A stretch of DNA of 62,904 bases, the filler included, from Dirinaria sp. TL-2023a (taxonomy: Eukaryota): NCBI GenBank assembly GCA_051941275.1. It is 9 parts of 9 records of this genome, joined end to end, with 100 filler letters (N's around TTAATTAATTAA, not from the genome) between each part and the next. Parts side by side here need not be neighbours in the genome. Positions count along the whole stretch, not along the records: positions 1 to 6,932 come from JAVEBF010001388.1; 8 more parts are not named here. The stretch is one strand, 5' to 3'. Both the position numbers and the translations under genes were made by a program. The notes beneath the pieces were generated by a model. It had not been told where the DNA came from. It did no database searches and saw only the letters and a list, made by a program, of their open reading frames with translations. Below are positions 1 to 7,032 of the stretch, piece by piece (within the stretch, counting starts at the first letter, position 1; each line of letters begins with the position of its first letter).

Positions 1-234
1 GACTACAACCCAGATAGCGGAAGTCGCTATTAATCTTTTGAAGTGAAGCCTTTCTACATTCTCGGCTCACGAGAGATTTGAGATAGTCTCCGATGGCGCC
101 AAATTTCATTGTGCGAACCTTGCAATTCTTCCAAACCGTCATTTCTTTTCTTGCAATGATTGCCACACTTGAAAATGAACATATGCTAGCGCGCTAAGAC
201 GAACGAAAACGAGGGGTTTTGGAGATGTGGTCTC

Positions 235-2141
235 CTACACGTCTACACGCTGTCTTGGATGTCTCATTGGTTTTTCTTTCTGCTGCCAATAGAATGTCCC
301 AGCTATGGTGAGACTGGTAAGTAAAATTGTACATCCTACAAAGAAACCGATTTCTTTTTGCAGCTCGACACTGGGACTGGCTGAATGCATCGTTGTAAGT
401 TGGGCGATATTAGTACTGAAGAAGGACTGCCCTCATTTTGTCAGATAAAGTGGTGCATAAAACGGGGAAGACTTAGGGAACCTACAATTATCAGGCTAAC
501 AGGAAGATAGATCATTGCAATGAAGCTGATAATTCGCATCGTTCTGGAGTCATAATGGCTTGTTTCTAACATCGAAAGCGTCAAATCAGATTGGAACGAA
601 GATCTCTGCGCAAGACTTCGCAAAGTAGACCCGTTGTCGTGGATTACTGCATCATTCCTGTGGTCTAGGATCTTGAACAGCTGAGCTTGGTCAATGCAAG
701 AACATGGTCATCCTATTTTGCTGTGGGATTCATTGAGCTCACCAATGACCTTGTACTCTTGGCAGACTCCAAAAGCGACTCCAGATCATGAATATGTAGC
801 TGGAGACTTTTGTGGCACTCCCAAATCTTCATCTCATAACAGTTCCATTGTACCGCTGTGAGAGTAATTCTGCCGCTGCTCGATTGTTGTAACGTCTGGC
901 AGTATATCTTGATATCAAGTAATGTCCGCAGCTGTGCTCGCATGATGGATAAGATTCGTCGAATCTTCCCCAGCAGAAGCTCCATTTTCTGACAGTCTGC
1001 AAATTCTAAGCTGTAATCCTGATCTAAGCGTCGATCAACCTCGGAGAAACAAGCAATCTCGTGCTAAGGAGCGTCTTAGTCGACCGGTGTTGCTTTAAAG
1101 CCGCAGTACTCGCCAAGACTCACTAGATTCGACAATCGTTCTGCTAGATAACGTATATACTGTTTCCAATTTCTTTGAGAACGAGCGAAGATGAGTATAT
1201 GCAGTGCTACTGGATGGAGTCGATCTGCGGGAGTGCTTGAGGCAACCGGGTCACTGCTTTCACAGCAATCGATACAGTCGCGGATGGGCTGTGCTAGCTG
1301 AACAAACATCCAAGTAGAGGACTCTTGAGCAAAGCATAGCTTATGATATACTGCGGTCTGTCGGAGCGACCACGGGTCCTTGAGTGCAGGCCGTCTATGC
1401 TTCTCTACATGATATAGATTGTACGCAATCTCTTTTGCAAGTCAGAGATGAAATTGCAGCGTTAAAAAGCATGACACTTACCGCAACACGAGATGCGATT
1501 TGACACTCGGTCTAAGCGTCGAAATATGGGAAAGCATCTCGGAGACGGCTCATCGATCTCTGACGTCTTGAGGCCAAGCCCACAAAGAACTTCGACGAAT
1601 ACTGGGAAAATGTCGAAGTGTTCAACAAGCATGCGAAACATGCCGAGGGAAATCTTCAAGGGGCTCCAAGAGCTCGCTTGCTCAATGAATCTGTTGCTAG
1701 CCAACTAGAGCTGCATAAGAAGGGGAGAAGTCACGATCGACGCGTACATAAATGTGTCGCCACTGCGAGCGCTTTGTCTCTATATGACAGCAGATATATC
1801 AGCTTTCTCAGCAGTCTGAGTGGCGAGGACTTTCTGCGTACCTCAAGTAGGGCTCCTAATGCAGGCTCAGTAGTAATGGTCTCACGTTCGACATTTGGGA
1901 GGCCTAGACTCACCAGATTTAGCTACTGACATGGATCCAGCCACACTTGAATCTACAAACCGCCGTCGTTGCGCTGTTCCTGCCACAGAACGTCAAGTAC
2001 CAGCTTTGCCTCATATTCCGATTCTTCCGGGACGAACAATGCGTGTGAGTCTTCAAGCAAGAGTTGTGGATAGTAATGGTCATCCTCAAGATCAACGCTC
2101 GTTCCTTGAGGTCCTCCCCGAGGCGACGCCACGATGGACAT
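235..2141 (-). CDS. Fungal CorA-like (2-TM C-terminus) membrane protein, 8 exons, ~499 aa
   Basis: Exons 2141-1961, 1903-1842, 1779-1748, 1690-1482, 1431-1124, 1063-743, 680-486 and 426-235 splice at GT..AG sites into 1500 nt with no stop. Motifs typical of fungal CorA-like proteins: IEQASSWSPLKIS, EIAYNLYHVEKH..DPWSLRQTAVYH, HP..LH....RNWKQYI, DSRTMRIISFIAMIYLPVSLIISFFSTN (TM1) and EIGFFVGCTILLTSLTIAGTFYW (TM2). Confidence 0.8.
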
Positions 2142-2614
2142 GGGGCCGTCAGATTTTTTTTTAAAACAAGATCAAGTTTTTCCGCCGCAACTATACTAAA
2201 CATTTCTATGCACTTTTGTTTGAGGGCTAACGTCTATCTTGTATTTGACCTTTCGAGACATTCGGCGATGCGGACAAAGCCCTCGATCTTGATCAAGGTG
2301 TCAAGGCTGTGCACGCATTAGGGTGTGAAGGCGTCCTGTACGGCAACTGTAAGCCGACCAATTAGATGTCTTTGATATGAGAGCACGGCAGCCTTTGGCC
2401 CCCCCTCCTTTACGTCTCTACTATAGAAGAGCGCATTGGTTGGCGTGGCATAGGTACAGCCTTTTCCAGTGCAACGTCCTATTACCTATGCTCGCCCCAA
2501 CGCCTCCCAGAGCTCCCATATTGTGTCTAGCAGGAAGCCTCGTACAGCTCTCGAGGTTAACCTTGCGTCTAACTAAGGGATAATGACAGAGCACTCATCG
2601 GCTGCCGCGTCGTA

Positions 2615-2918
2615 ATGCCCGCAATAGTGACGTACACAGAGCGCTACATTGATTTAGGAAAACTTACAGCGCTCTTGAGAGAGCTTTTTCCTGACAACTT
2701 CTCCGTTAGGGTATGTACCCAAGGCGCGCAAGAGAGGCCGGCATTGGAAGCTCATTCTTCTTCCAATACCAGTCAAGAGATAACAATGTGACCATCTCAG
2801 CCCCAAGAGAACTCACACAAGTAGATGGGATTACAAAAAATCGTCTGAGGTGTGCGGGCTAAACGACCCTTCCATTCAGGTTGAAATCCGGTCGACCTGG
2901 TACGCCAATGCCAATTGA
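2615..2918 (+). CDS. 60-aa microprotein, 3 exons, not in ORF track: MPAIVTYTERYIDLGKLTALLRELFPDNFSVRSRDNNVTISAPRELTQVEIRSTWYANAN
   Basis: Exons 2615-2710, 2773-2820 and 2880-2918. Introns are gtatgt..ccag (62 nt) and gtagat..tcag (59 nt), both phase 0 with branch-like gctcat/gctaaa. The product has an amphipathic beta-alpha-beta-beta-alpha-like pattern. Confidence 0.72.
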
Positions 2919-2974
2919 GCCCGAAGGTCACAGGTGACGCTTCGCATCTCCTTAAATTCGGAAAAGCCCAGGCA

Positions 2975-5900
2975 ATGCCTCCTAGCCTGGAGACTCCAGG
3001 CTCGGAATCTTCTGGTCTATTTAAGCTTCGCAATGGCATTGAAGACTTGCGGTGCAAAGCCGCCGATGGCCACTACTTCAATCCGCAATCCATTAGGAAG
3101 CTTTGCACACCTGAATTAATCAAGGCAGCGGTTCATGACTATCCATTTCCGGCTCATAAGAAAGATGGAATAGCTCAGAGCATTCTCTGCAACGGCATCC
3201 TGATCTTTTGCATCCTTGTGCACATCAGGGCCGAGCATTTGATGGTAATCTTACTGGAACGTGATGTCTCCAAGAAGCTCGATAACCGGCTTCCTATGGA
3301 TTCTGGTGCGCTAAGCTTCATGCAGCGTGAAGAGAGTAGAAGGTTCTTTGAGGTACAGTGGGAGTTTCTTCCAGTTAAGCTACCCAGCCGGGAGTACTTG
3401 CAGATTGACGAGCATTATATACTGCCTTATCTAGAAAATCGGCGCCACGCAGACCGCGGCGGATCTTTTGGTGATATCTACAAGGCCACTTTTGAATGCT
3501 CGATGCAAGATATGCTCGAGTACCCCGAGCCGAACAAAGAGGGAGGAATGGTTACTGTCATTCGAAAACAGATTCGATTCAATGAGAACATTGAAGGCTT
3601 TGCAAGGGAGAGGAGTTGCTTAGAGATCCTGCAACAGTTAAAGCACCCAAATATCGTGGAATTGCTTTGTTCTTATACCTACAAGGGTGAGCACAGTCTG
3701 ATTTTTCCCTGTGAAGACATGGATCTCGACGATTTCTTCAAGAAGGGAAGATACCGGGACTTTCAATCCAATCCTACATTCTATCTGGCGGTTTATGGCT
3801 TGATATCTGCCGTGGAATATTTACATAACTTTCAAAGCGATGTAAGGGAAGACTTTTCAACTATGATCGGGTCTCACCATGACATTCGACCGCACAATAT
3901 TCTGGTTCGGTCCAACACTTTCATTCTGGCTGATTTTGGTCTTGCAAAAATGAGTGAAGAGGGCAAATCGTCCACATCGATGAAAGGTGGGGGAGGGGAG
4001 TACATGGCACCGGAGTGCATCAAAGGAGGCAAAATCGGGCGAGCAGCAGATATATGGTCCCTCGGCGGCGTGTTTCTGGACATTGCGGCGTACATCGAAG
4101 ACGGGCCTGAAGGTCGAATTCGAGCTCAAGATAAGCGAGAGGGAGGTGGCCCGTACGTTGATGCAACGACCACCCATTTTTTTTCCACCGACGGCAATTT
4201 GAAGACGGGGGTTATTGATTCGATTCAGAAACTCCAAGAAAACCCCGAGGACAAGACACTACGCACATTCCTACTTCTTAGTAGAAGTATGCTTGGTGTG
4301 AACCAAGAAACCCGTCCAAGTGCGCCAACAGTCCGACGGAACGCAGCATATATTGCTATCAAGTCACTTTTCAGAGAAGCTTTACAAGACATGATAAAGT
4401 GGAGAGAGCAGTTGGGGGAAACTGACGCCGGTAGAATATGGGAAGATACTTGGAAGCTTTGGGCATGGGGTGAGGAGGTCGGTATCAATGGAGTCAATCT
4501 CGCGACCAAAGAATTTAAAGAGGCTATACCTCACGCCGATAAAACCGAAAAACGTTTACAGAACATCCTGACCGAATTAGTACGGGCCCTCGGCAGTGAA
4601 AAGCTGCTTCAAAAGAGGACTCCTGTACAGAGAGGGCCAAATGGAGTATCTGCACCTGGACAATATTACTGCATAGGAGCTTAGAAAATTAATGATCGTA
4701 TAAGAGATCTGAGAACTACTCTTCCGGATGATTATGGGAAGAGAATCAAGGCTCGCAAGGCCTGCTACGGTAAGTATGCTGATTATGATCCTCCCAAACT
4801 GCCATCCATGTCCGATGAGCTTTTGCAATCTTCAGATCACCCTGCAACGGGAAGTGGGGTGCGTTCAGCCAGTGTATCGCCATTGGGAAGCGCCTGTATT
4901 GATCCCATGCTAAATAGTGGACTCGAAGAGCTACAGCTGAAGGACATTTCGGTCGGAGAACATAATGAGATGGGACCGCCAAAGGATGTTGAGACAACCT
5001 TTGATGAGCCCCAAGAGCCTACATTGACGCAGGGCACGCATCATACTGACAGAGACTCGCGGCAACTCCAAACTATGAACTCTAAAGACTTGGAGTATTC
5101 AAATCATAGTCACGCTGAGCTTGGCACATCTGTGTCACAGAAATCGCTTATTCTGCCTTCCCCGGAAGAGCAGCGGACGGCAACACCAAAACCGACCAGG
5201 ACCGAAGCTGGCAGCAAATTTGAAAGTAGCATCTTCTCAACATTAAGTGGTCCTGAGAAGTCAACAAATGCCACAAGCATCGAACCTGGAAATTCAGTTA
5301 GTTTGGGTAGCAGGCACATACACAATGAAAGAGCCTCGTTTCGCCGGCCGCTGTCTTCTTTGCGTCTGCCAGACCCTGTGATTCGCGGTGGGTGGCCTGA
5401 GCGTGGCTCTATTCTCGAAGGGACTGGCATTTCGGCTCATGTGTAAGAGAAGTCTCTGAAGCATGTTACCCCGCTGACTCTGACTTGAAGCACTTATGAA
5501 ACCGCCACTCGTCAGCGCGATACTAAACGCTTCGACACCCACATTCTCACCGTCGACGACTCGAACGAAGCATTTATCGTCGTATACTGTATCAGCAATG
5601 ATTTCAATATCTCTTTGTGCCACAGTCGTAAGGCCTGAGCACTTTTTATCTTGACACGCTCAGCAAACTGATTAGAGACGAAGTCAACGAGTCGGCTTCT
5701 GCATACCCACACACTGACTACCTCGTCGGTGGCAAAGGTTCGTTACCAAAAGTGCACTTCTTGGGCGCACAGATTGTGTATGAACAAACAAATTTAACAA
5801 TGCCTTCGTCTAAGGCCCCGGCCGAAGGGCACCTACTGGCTCCAGCAAAGACGCGGATAGAGTCAGGAAACATAAGTTACACCTTTGCTTCTTCAGACGG

Positions 5901-6506
5901 TAGGTTGCGTAACTCGTGGACTCAGTTGGATTCCTGGTTGACGATCAAACTTCAGACTGCAAAAAGTTTCGTTCAGCTGTTTGGGGACGAGATCTATTGC
6001 AGTGCATCGGTGCACACCAAATCTCTGGGCCATCTGTCAAAGAGGCCGAATCCGTAAATATAAGTCTGTGGAAAGAACGATCCGCACCGGAAAAACTCAC
6101 CGTTACGTTTCGGGCGCTACTCAAGGGTGCCAAGGAACGAACTGTGGTCGAACTTGCTCGTAAGTCTCCTATATGGAAATATAAAGTTTTCGGAGATCGG
6201 TACTGATCTCTTTCGTGCTTCAGTAGCAGGTGTAGATCCAATAGGATACCAGAAGGACAGAAATATCCACCTCTATATCGAACCTCTACAGGAACATAGG
6301 GAGGCTACCAAGTCGAAAAAGCGTGTACGACCTCAAGAAGTCGTGATCAGATTCCGCTCTCACCAGGGTAAGAGTAACCATTCTCAAGCTTGGATTCTTG
6401 CTCGATGAGTTTCTGACCATGAACTTGGGTTGCTATAGATTGCGATTCTGCTTGCCTTCGGATTGATAAGGCTCTCCCAGGTGTGAGGCTAAGATTCCAA
6501 CACTGA
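2975..6506 (+). CDS. Accessory protein kinase (kinase + HeLo-like helical region + disordered linker + PH-like tail) with one in-frame TAG at 4682-4684
   Basis: Kinase motifs GGSFGDIY, VIRKQ, FARERSCL, HPNIVELL, HHDIRPHNILV, ADFGL, YMAPE and ADIWSLG. The frame continues past the TAG to 5442. Further exons 5491-5627, 5684-5899, 5956-6159, 6224-6367 and 6439-6506 splice in frame. Length is 1078 aa if the TAG is decoded and 569 aa if not. Confidence 0.8.
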
Positions 6507-6932
6507 ACTGTGATGCTGCATTACTGAGTTCTCATTCCTTGCGCCGTGTTGCGCTTTCTTGGGTATAAAGAGTTCTGGCTTGCGCATGATTTGATCATCC
6601 AAGAATTCCGCTTGCCACTAGCTGCTAACACAGCTCTTGACCCGAGGTTTCGTTCTCTGTCTATACCATCATGTTTTGTGTATCTGCAGACAGAATCCAC
6701 GATCTAATCGTGGTGGTTTTCGTATCATCTGAGCCCCAAGCTTTCGATTTACTTGTAGTTGAGAATCTTTCATCGAGTGTCTATTTAGTCGAATACCTCG
6801 TCGACACGTTTCATTATTTTCGACGTCTCGTGACTCAAAGCCACCGACTAGGCTCAGCAGCAAACGATGATAAACACATTTTCGAAATAGACTCGCAATT
6901 GACGCTAAAAACTTGATCTCTAAGCTAAGATC

Positions 6933-7032
6933 NNNNNNNNNNNNNNNNNNNNNNNNNNNNNNNNNNNNNNNNNNNNTTAATTAATTAANNNNNNNNNNNN
7001 NNNNNNNNNNNNNNNNNNNNNNNNNNNNNNNN
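6933..7032. other. Artificial contig spacer N44-TTAATTAATTAA-N44
   Basis: Exactly 100 bp; identical to seven other spacers; the 12-mer gives stop codons on both strands. Confidence 0.97.

Follow-up and report, generated by a model that had tools for sequence, protein, structure and literature searches.

Several described systems share parts of their layout with the three-gene cluster reported here from a lichen fungus. In MLKL/RIPK3 necroptosis and the plant MLKLs, as in the long-form relatives of the cluster kinase, an active kinase is associated with a helix bundle and a pseudokinase-like domain (DUF7580 in the relatives), and MLKL 4HB, HET-S HeLo and plant CC domains are the best structural matches of the long-form bundle. 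Unlike MLKL/RIPK3, however, the long-form relatives unite the active kinase with the bundle and pseudokinase in a single polypeptide, the cluster kinases carry their bundle internally whereas that of HET-S and of MLKL is N-terminal, and the kinase described here has no pseudokinase. It was reported that some fungal HELL domains occur in proteins with a kinase or pseudokinase domain (PMC12881547), and that review mentions neither CorA-fold protein nor microprotein neighbours. Constant neighbours of these two kinds distinguish the cluster from the MLKL, RIPK3 and HELL systems. HET-S/NWD2 and other fungal NLR-effector pairs resemble the cluster as tightly linked genes with a HeLo-type bundle, and a TPR_10/TPR_12 repeat protein adjoins the cluster in many loci; in contrast to these pairs, neither NACHT nor NB-ARC was found in Pfam scans of seven of the TPR genes, and coupling in the cluster would proceed by phosphorylation instead of amyloid templating.

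On the membrane side, the CorA, ZntB, Mrs2 and Alr1 proteins (PF01544) resemble the CorA-like protein of the cluster in having an alpha/beta domain at the N-terminus, a long stalk helix and a pair of membrane helices at the C-terminus. CorA-family membrane effectors also occur in bacterial type III CRISPR systems; there, as here, the gene of a CorA-fold protein, the presumed output, lies beside that of a signalling enzyme, but the cluster is eukaryotic and a protein kinase replaces the cyclase and nucleotide signal. No description of a kinase-microprotein-CorA cluster was found in the literature searched.

The window, the whole stretch of DNA that was analysed (62,904 nucleotides), is composed of nine contigs of ~6.9 kb joined by N/stop spacers. 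Contig 1 (1-6932), from a Dirinaria lichen-fungus MAG, carries all three genes, namely a CorA-fold gene on the minus strand, a 60-aa microprotein gene and a protein kinase gene (Table 1). The preliminary description had placed the ATGs of the first two genes head to head and the kinase ATG (2975) directly behind the microprotein stop, and both distances were matched to the base. The divergent intergenic region presumably serves the CorA-like and microprotein genes as a common promoter region; a search of 80 related loci gave no conserved ORF piece from it, only isolated matches with E of at least 0.23. The spacer before the kinase appears too short for a terminator and promoter of its own, so the microprotein and kinase are likely to be carried by one shared or overlapping transcript.

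Table 1. Positions of the cluster genes and their parts on contig 1
Feature	Position	Strand	Remarks
CorA-fold membrane protein gene (PF26616 'CorA-like')	235..2141	-	7 exons, 493 aa
CorA-like exons	2141-1961, 1903-1842, 1704-1482, 1431-1124, 1063-743, 680-486, 426-235	-	
Divergent intergenic region, CorA-like ATG to microprotein ATG	2142..2614	.	473 nt, read directly
Microprotein gene, 60 aa	2615..2918	+	exons 2615-2710, 2773-2820, 2880-2918 (stop included)
Microprotein introns, phase 0	2711-2772 (GTATGT..CAG), 2821-2879 (GTAGAT..CAG)	+	
Spacer, microprotein stop to kinase ATG	2919..2974	+	56 nt
Protein kinase gene	2975..5446	+	single reading frame interrupted by TAG; stop TAA 5444-5446
Family-specific N-terminal domain, ~160 aa	2975..3460	+	kept in 12 of 27 aligned relatives, the ones that include the N-terminus
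Catalytic kinase domain	3461..4348	+	every core motif present
Helical region aligned to HeLo-like bundle of long-form relatives	4349..4890	+	alignment to L045; end approximate
In-frame TAG, codon 570	4682-4684	+	inside sequence that orthologues translate
Downstream stretch, earlier joined to kinase as 'PH-like'	5447..6932	.	no relation to the unit found

That the three genes constitute a genuine conserved fungal unit can be stated with high confidence. The unit was traced in 80 metagenome loci (60 non-redundant groups), the best 80 of 430 kinase relatives, and the relatives used for fetching were only 23-40% identical. Counted in these loci, which were picked via the kinase, the three genes were found together in 30/60 groups and in 21 of the 25 flanked on each side by 5 kb or more, the other four being two with the kinase alone and two without a CorA match at E<=1e-5. 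Where at least 3 kb of flank was present, CorA accompanied the microprotein in 26/29 groups and was found in 0/4 groups without it (Fisher p 0.0009). In 30 of 31 groups, no more than 2.6 kb separated the CorA match from the kinase or microprotein. The median distance to the nearest edge of either was 1152 nt, and the pairwise distances of the genes were correlated (Mantel r 0.74 for kinase and CorA-like, 0.60 for kinase and microprotein, 0.43 for CorA-like and microprotein; 21 groups), at values reached in none of 2000 permutations. The unit is well supported by these adjacency counts, short CorA distances and Mantel correlations, and the test named in the preliminary description, whether homologues are unlinked elsewhere, did not refute the linkage. 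The gene order of the window is the commonest (13 groups), but 11 different arrangements were found and the strand varies too, which indicates that the linkage outlived rearrangement.

The designation of the third gene as a protein kinase was confirmed by Pfam (Pkinase, E 2.1e-24, 86.7 bits vs the cut-off of 31.7). The Gly-rich loop (from 162), Lys198 (VIRK), HHD (301-303), Asn308, DFG (320-322) and APE (345-347) are invariant or nearly so in the family alignment and, judged from sequence, mark a catalytically complete Ser/Thr kinase. Similarity to solved kinases is generic only (best 6cth_A, E 2.9e-14), and a Pfam scan of the N-terminal domain gave no match. The gene had been drawn to 6506 with a PH-like domain at its end; neither survived, as the C-terminal motif and the stop at 5446 are common to six orthologues (P0004, P0005, P0011, P0022, P0029 and P0038), and the sequence behind the stop was rejected as part of the kinase. 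Six pieces of that stretch had no Pfam match (best E 0.034), its ORF pieces gave nothing in the 80 related loci, and a 141-aa ORF (5632-6054), searched against 1.84 billion representatives, had no real relative, its one match (E 2.5e-4) being a five-fold lamin-tail repeat protein.

The in-frame TAG reflects either a nonsense change or an error of assembly. The tblastn alignments of P0004, P0005, P0038 and P0002 cross it uninterrupted, P0004 having Q there, and the NCBI model P0001 (803 aa, 100% identical) spans it via a 60-nt 'intron' (4625-4684). The kinase copy in the Dirinaria MAG may be impaired because of this premature stop, and the cassette could then be a decaying relic, with a kinase pseudogene and a linkage that is merely inherited, as the loss of the DUF7580 tail from this short-form kinase and the weak donor of microprotein intron 2 (GTAGAT) would also suggest. 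Against decay, the CorA-like and microprotein frames are intact, the 569 aa encoded ahead of the TAG retain the N-domain and a complete kinase domain, shortness is shared by close orthologues (627 and 637 aa), and an isolated base in the consensus of a MAG may simply be wrong. A relic is somewhat unlikely.

The TAG falls about two thirds along the helical region. The bundle of the long-form relative L045 (model pLDDT 84) was compared with 48,161 chains, and the best match was the HET-S N-terminal domain (2wvo_A, Z 10.6, rmsd 3.0, 138 residues), followed by the CC domains of plant NLRs (Rx, Z 9.2; MLA13, 7.5; NRG1.1, 7.2) and MLKL (6.7 and 6.5), in a fold class in which the common arrangement alone may reach Z ~13. 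Foldseek gave nothing for the bundle at E<=0.001 (HET-s at rank 47, E 2.3), and Pfam HeLo was below threshold for the window kinase (12.7 vs 23.2 bits) and reached E<=1 in just 5/27 family members. In Pfam, the HeLo-like label of the preliminary description was not confirmed. DUF7580 was detected in 16/27 family members, and its combination with the bundle in the long-form relatives suggests, by analogy, an MLKL-like layout. Further kinase-family ORFs, belonging to a kinase-TPR neighbour gene, are present in 26/60 groups; TPR_10/TPR_12 repeats were found in all seven kinase-TPR genes scanned, and Pkinase or PK_Tyr_Ser-Thr matches in 6/6 of those whose kinase ORFs were scanned (L002 left out). 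The TPR-kinase is absent from contig 1.

A 58-codon ORF is by itself meaningless, as 28 ORFs reach 50 aa or more within the first 8 kb. Among 65 intergenic and downstream ORF pieces searched, repeated matches in related loci were obtained with the microprotein piece alone (13 at E<=1, best 1.3e-4). The 60-aa gene proposed earlier is real: its three-exon structure (32+16+12 aa) with both phase-0 intron positions is kept in 41/80 related loci, and an HMM, trained on the same loci as those searched, detected it in 54/80 at domain E<=1e-4 (13 beyond the 41 full models) and in none of the reversed-sequence controls. Searched with exon 1, the microprotein matched no Pfam family and no PDB chain. Since it co-occurs with both partners while order and strand vary, this cytosolic product of ~60 aa is encoded by a separate gene and represents a new family whose intron positions are conserved.

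It might still be argued that the ORF acts mainly in cis, as a conserved uORF throttling kinase translation through a peptide without a partner. In 25 of the 39 groups having a microprotein it lies directly upstream of the kinase on the same strand, and the spacer (median 198 nt, n=19) is 23-112 nt in 9/19 cases; that of the window measures 56 nt, an arrangement reminiscent of conserved-peptide uORFs and bicistronic fungal transcripts. Unlike these, the microprotein ORF is assembled by splicing of three exons, and in 14/39 groups it is placed differently, on the opposite strand, behind the kinase or next to the CorA gene (e.g., L014, L036, L044, L055, L062, L078 and L080). In addition, the whole peptide is conserved, with one motif over exons 2 and 3, which probably exceeds what a stalling uORF usually needs. 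An action mainly in cis is accordingly improbable.

The CorA-like gene named in the preliminary description was recovered as a spliced frame, open from the ATG (2141) to the stop (237-235), with six introns of 57, 137, 50, 60, 62 and 59 nt, all GT..AG. The orthologue P0121 is identical to its product at 372/498 positions and collinear with contig 1 in tblastn from 2141 down to 250; in Foldseek its AF2 model (pLDDT 75.4) had, among the matches listed (to rank 37), CorA chains throughout, best 4i0u_B (E 1.1e-5). Kinase control of transporters is common, and the kinase and small regulator could accordingly tune a CorA-type divalent-cation transporter in ion homeostasis, with no part in cell death or non-self recognition. 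The CorA fold and a weak Pfam CorA match in the C-terminal half (PF01544, E 3.9e-5, 23.6 bits vs the cut-off of 27) are consistent with this explanation. Unlike CorA, ZntB, Mrs2 and Alr1, however, the protein stays below that cut-off, is placed by databases in a separate family found in Ascomycota, and has FFSTN, varying among relatives (IFSSN, IFSSG, FYSTP and others), at the position of GMN, the hallmark of CorA magnesium channels. The HeLo-like bundle, pseudokinase tail and TPR_10/12 kinase neighbour are typical of immune and cell-death proteins, and the presence of two clusters on one contig (L019 and L045), together with only 34-37% identity between groups, would fit a diversifying family over a housekeeping one. 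Ion homeostasis is slightly less probable still than the action in cis.

The cluster might be suspected to be a selfish element of the toxin-antidote or spore-killer type, or a strict allorecognition (het) locus in place of a general signalling cassette, since a small protein lies next to a potential membrane killer, the order varies and there are several copies per contig; this is very unlikely, as the three genes co-diverge to ~35% identity in many groups, like genes under long vertical retention. Hardly credible is a ribosomal peptide natural product, with the microprotein as precursor, the kinase as modifying enzyme and the CorA-like protein as exporter: a short peptide gene with a variable C-terminal tail does lie beside enzyme and membrane protein genes, but the alignment has no signal/leader-type architecture, conserved Cys or repeats, the neighbours include no known tailoring enzyme, and CorA-fold proteins are not known to export peptides.

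The lichen-fungus trio, kept in many fungi, points instead to a not yet described unit for signalling or cell death. Membrane or cell-death signalling is a tentative reading, a little short of an even chance, and the whole statement, conserved cluster and mechanism together, stands about evenly balanced. The cluster would be a kinase-controlled cassette for membrane signalling or regulated cell death, in which the kinase becomes activated and the TPR-kinase, where present, is the likely sensor. The microprotein would be produced coordinately with the kinase, in many cases probably off one transcript, and might serve it as stoichiometric brake, adaptor or substrate; its PRxLT motif contains a near-invariant Thr/Ser that has Arg at -3. 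Output to the membrane might pass via the CorA-fold protein, which presumably forms a pentameric pore gated by its cytoplasmic domain, and alternatively or additionally through the HeLo-like bundle of the kinase itself.

The linkage of the three genes is the decisive result of this analysis. JGI metagenome contigs were scanned with the kinase alignment, and the best 80 of 430 relatives (23-40% identity) were kept as loci with at most 10 kb per side, which formed 60 groups at 85% nucleotide identity; identity between these loci and 11 named relatives was 27-53%. The CorA-like gene was detected in 45 of the 80 loci and in none of the reversed controls, when its orthologue P0121 and a second database protein, P0122, were used as tblastn queries (E ≤ 1e-3). 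All three genes were found together in 30 of the 60 groups, whose loci had been chosen by kinase similarity, microprotein and kinase only in 9, kinase and CorA-like gene only in 1 (L004, a locus with an upstream flank of only 146 nt), and the kinase alone in 20, for the most part on short contigs or with the most distant kinases. When only the 25 groups with 5 kb or more on each side are counted, 21 contained all three genes and 2 the kinase alone; 2 of the 25 showed no CorA match at E ≤ 1e-5, and one of these (L048) has weaker matches. The module proposed in the preliminary description is therefore found linked elsewhere, and the three-gene unit is real and conserved, which supports in part the interpretation given there. 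The order seen in the window, in which the CorA-like gene on the minus strand is followed by a plus-strand microprotein and kinase, is the most frequent (13 groups), but ten other three-gene orders also occur. No more than 2.6 kb separates the CorA match from the kinase or the microprotein in 30 of 31 groups (median 1152 nt). Across 21 groups, the three genes show correlated pairwise distances (r 0.74, 0.60 and 0.43; 0 of 2000 permutations as high), a correlation to which shared species history contributes. When the microprotein is located upstream on the same strand, the median spacer between its stop and the kinase ATG is 198 nt, with 112 nt or less in 9 of 19 cases, and such short spacers suggest that both genes may be carried on a shared transcript.

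Coordinates of features in the window and in two related metagenome loci (L019, L045)
Feature	Position	Strand	Remark
CorA-like gene	ATG 2141 to stop 237-235	minus	best splice model over junction windows, 493-aa open frame
Microprotein exons	2615-2710, 2773-2820, 2880-2918	plus	60 aa, stop ends at 2918
Microprotein introns	2711-2772, 2821-2879	plus	
Kinase gene start	ATG 2975	plus	569-codon ORF
'Intron' of NCBI kinase model	4625-4684	plus	60 nt, GTACAG donor
TAG in kinase frame	4682-4684	plus	
Kinase gene end	TAA 5444-5446	plus	last residues and stop common to six orthologues
ORF downstream of kinase	5632-6054		141 aa
First spacer between pieces	6933-7032		
ORF on contig 2	7323-7913		presumed GPN-loop GTPase
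Bundle of intronless long form	L045:11372-11989		modelled
Kinase-TPR gene, example	L019:13543-16325		C-terminal TPR_10/TPR_12

The unspliced microprotein ORF comprises 58 codons and by itself means nothing, because the first 8 kb contain 28 ORFs that reach 50 aa or more. When 65 intergenic and downstream ORF pieces were compared with 1.0 Mb of related loci, a series of matches was obtained for the microprotein piece only (13 at E ≤ 1, best 1.3e-4). The exon-1 matches start with Met, end at a GT donor and keep the same codon phase across loci; exon 2 is short and ends with a PRxLT-type motif followed by another donor, and exon 3 opens with an acidic-Glu-Ile motif and runs to the stop. Based on a strict pattern search, complete three-exon models were identified in the window and in 41 of the 80 loci; their sequences align well, and the bulk of them are 55-66 aa long (extremes 55 and 84 aa). 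The product length and stop position in the preliminary description agree exactly with this model. A microprotein HMM detected domains at E ≤ 1e-4 in 54 of the 80 loci and in none of the reversed-sequence controls; since 42 of these same sequences served as its training set, only 13 additional loci are independent of training. The copy number is one per locus, and neither the 80 loci nor the remaining eight contigs of the window contained intronless, fused or extra copies. It could be supposed that the microprotein is simply exon 1 of the kinase, but this was ruled out by its opposite strand or detached position in 14 of 39 groups, and it is therefore a gene of its own.

A Thr/Ser with Arg at position -3 is nearly invariant in the aligned microproteins, and the alignment contains no long hydrophobic stretch. 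The exon-1 peptides (n = 26) matched no consistent Pfam family, and a PDB profile search with exon 1 returned one engineered protein (E 0.043), which was counted as no PDB match. The microprotein is rated as a new family. The spliced 60-aa gene is real though it is missing from the annotation retrieved for contig 1, in which P0001 is the only protein, and gene finders probably miss this family throughout Pezizomycotina. Matches to PMAIP1 (Noxa, a BH3-only death protein) were obtained with 2 of the 26 peptides (best E 0.006) and were taken as chance, curious as they are in this context. The first helix of the microprotein (RYI..L..LL, ~2645-2700) resembles a segment close to the beginning of the kinase N-domain (Y[FI]..x..L..L, ~3065-3120); hhalign of the two chose the RY[IF]..L..L pair, which was not significant (probability 0.95%, E 0.058).

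The kinase ORF matches PF00069 Pkinase (E 2.1e-24, 86.7 bits vs. a cut-off of 31.7) and contains all the catalytic motifs (K198, H301-H302-D303 with N308, D320-F321-G322, and A345-P346-E347), the residues of which are invariant or nearly so in 27 relatives; among solved kinases, only generic relatives were found. P0001 (803 aa), which NCBI names a hypothetical protein of a metagenome-assembled Dirinaria sp., is 100% identical to the window kinase. Dirinaria is a lichen-forming fungus. The reading frame goes on for 253 codons beyond a single TAG, which the NCBI model excises as an 'intron' with a poor donor. Four orthologues (P0004, P0005, P0038, and P0002) align straight across the TAG, where P0004 has Q, so that the coding sequence carries here either a nonsense change or an error of the consensus. 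The preliminary description was essentially right and erred only in extending the kinase gene to 6506 and in giving it a PH-like part: the gene ends at the TAA shared by the orthologues, and a profile scan of the sequence downstream of it (5447-6932, in six pieces) returned no PH family at E ≤ 5 and no Pfam match. This region, which has no counterpart in the 80 related loci, holds several ORFs (50-140 codons) that have plausible GT..AG junctions but no relatives, and its 141-aa ORF found no real relative among 1.84 billion representatives; the region represents an orphan gene or else is non-coding. The window (62,904 bases) is made of nine pieces of ~6.9 kb, with the cluster on the first of them (1-6932), and the boundaries of the pieces are paired N runs around the stop-codon spacer TTAATTAATTAA, which lies between the first two pieces and recurs as seven further spacers. 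Because the pieces are separate contigs joined by spacers, features on different pieces are not genomic neighbours; the ORF on contig 2, which we take to be the housekeeping gene of a GPN-loop GTPase, lies on another contig than the cluster.

The relatives of the kinase comprise a short lichen clade, which ends as the window protein does, and long forms of ~950 aa with a C-terminal DUF7580, present in 16 of 27 aligned family members. Neither DUF7580 nor a second kinase-like domain was found in P0001 or in the orthologues P0002 and P0005. The DUF7580 consensus has a kinase-like C-lobe signature and reads as a probable pseudokinase, because HKN replaces HRD and DFG is absent. In the long forms a helical region sits between the kinase domain and DUF7580. 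The corresponding bundle in the window starts at about residue 459, after the kinase domain and thus not at a free N-terminus as in HeLo and MLKL executioners, and the TAG cuts it about two thirds in. A HeLo-like part had been claimed for this kinase. The Pfam HeLo profile (PF14479) scored 12.7 bits over residues 494-552 of the window kinase, below the cut-off of 23.2, and at E ≤ 1 it matched 5 of the 27 members of the family, with a best E of 0.046. The bundle of an intronless long form (locus L045) was modelled with pLDDT 84 and pTM 0.76; a Foldseek search with this model gave nothing at E ≤ 0.001, with HET-s at rank 47. In VIA-align against 48,161 chains, the top match was the HET-S N-terminal domain (2wvo_A; Z 10.6, rmsd 3.0 Å, 138 residues), followed by Rx-CC (9.2), MLA13 (7.5), NRG1.1 CC-R (7.2), and MLKL (6.7 and 6.5). 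As helical bundles often reach such scores by arrangement alone, HeLo-likeness is considered no more than probable at the family level.

Single minus-strand ORF pieces and single exons of the CorA-like gene had no Pfam match. P0121 (498 aa, 75% identical, with a precomputed PF26616) was found with one exon as query, and its tblastn matches are collinear on contig 1 from 2141 down to 250. The splice model consists of seven exons and six GT..AG introns (57, 137, 50, 60, 62, and 59 nt), and its product is identical to P0121 at 372 of 498 positions. An AlphaFold2 model of P0121 (mean pLDDT 75.4), built on an alignment of 89 rows, most of which were exon fragments taken from related loci, contains an alpha/beta domain together with very long helices and a helical hairpin at the end, and the CorA-fold features (alpha/beta N-domain, stalk helix, and two C-terminal membrane helices) are thus predicted in it. 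Among the matches listed by Foldseek against PDB, down to rank 37, there were CorA chains only; the top one is 4i0u_B (E 1.1e-5, probability 1.00), with TM-scores of 0.26/0.35 that are low because the long helices are differently oriented. The modelled fold is that of CorA, which upholds the naming of the gene as CorA-like. The protein does not qualify as a member of the CorA magnesium-channel family proper, because two defining features are lacking: the PF01544 CorA profile stays below its cut-off of 27 bits in P0121 (23.6 bits, E 3.9e-5, C-terminal half only) and in P0122 (15.3 bits), and the GMN motif, which ends the first membrane helix in CorA magnesium channels, is absent, its position being occupied by FFSTN in the window protein and by FFSTN/Q, IFSSN/G, FYSTP, or FVSTT in the relatives (15 groups examined).

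The family PF26616 'CorA-like' (Ascomycota) is precomputed on both P0121 and P0122, and a fresh Pfam scan of P0121 returned no PF26616. The ESM Atlas neighbours of P0121 are Ascomycota clusters named 'CorA-like transporter domain-containing protein', and PF26616 is present in 60-84% of the members of the nearest clusters. Word-based searches for CorA-like proteins, with the best 8000 candidates scored, found at least one and at least two, numbers that have little bearing on family size. One intron of the CorA-like gene, just before the FFSTN/IFSSN motif that closes the first membrane helix, has the same place in the window (485-427) and in several distant relatives, for example in loci L034, L004, and L051.

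Kinase-family ORFs outside the primary gene were detected by ORF clustering of the flanks in 26 of the 60 groups. TPR_10/TPR_12 repeats were present in all seven such genes scanned with Pfam (L002, L005, L019, L021, L022, L043, and L064), with no NACHT or NB-ARC in any of them, and the kinase domain precedes the repeats in the six with kinase ORFs scanned (all but L002). No similarity was found between the N-terminal ORF of the TPR-kinase and the kinase N-domain (E 1.6 and 2.7). Contig 1 of the window, up to its end at 6932, holds no kinase-TPR gene.

It was reported that some fungal HELL domains are located inside kinase/pseudokinase proteins, with no mention of CorA in the accessible part of that source (PMC12881547), and Pkinase is listed among the N-terminal domains of fungal NLRs (PMC9815663). 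In a literature search covering journals other than subscription ones, no mention was found of DUF7580 or of 'CorA-like' together with 'Pezizomycotina', and no description of such a cluster. We rate the kinase as belonging to the known fungal MLKL-like proteins, and the CorA-fold protein and the microprotein as its new partners. What is known of regulated cell death in fungi comes mainly from NLR/HeLo amyloid pairs and gasdermin/protease pairs; to our knowledge, kinase-driven, MLKL-type control in fungi has only been hinted at by domain architectures, and we know of nobody who has connected a CorA-fold protein and a microprotein to such a kinase. The present locus is concrete and widely conserved, and ties an active kinase with a probable HeLo-type bundle to a CorA-fold protein and a three-exon microprotein.

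An immune or cell-death type of family appears to fit the cluster better than housekeeping ion transport, based on the kinds of parts, the pair of clusters L019 and L045 on a single contig and the ~35% identity between groups. The kinase would relay a signal, for which the TPR-kinase would be the sensor in loci that have one; the microprotein would be made together with the kinase and bind it or be its phosphorylation substrate; and the output would arise at the membrane via the CorA-fold protein and/or the HeLo-like bundle. In the wider family, the kinase has a tail of helix bundle and probable pseudokinase in an MLKL-like layout, and a TPR-kinase neighbour occurs. A more far-reaching reading, which we regard as unlikely, is that this single locus of filamentous fungi encodes a necroptosis-like pathway complete in itself. 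The TPR-kinase would sense a cue and activate the kinase, to which an MLKL-like executioner (HeLo-type bundle and pseudokinase) is fused, the co-translated 60-aa microprotein would keep the system off until phosphorylated or displaced, and the CorA-fold protein without GMN would act as pore or membrane docking site. If this were true, CorA-fold proteins would form a class of membrane effectors in eukaryotic immunity, parallel to the CorA effectors found in type III CRISPR systems of bacteria. The four small parts are clonable and directly testable in Neurospora, Podospora, Aspergillus, or yeast.

The kinase family seems to multiply locally. L019 and L045 are two complete clusters of different subfamilies, ~25 kb apart on one metagenome contig, and L041 contains two further kinase-family genes.
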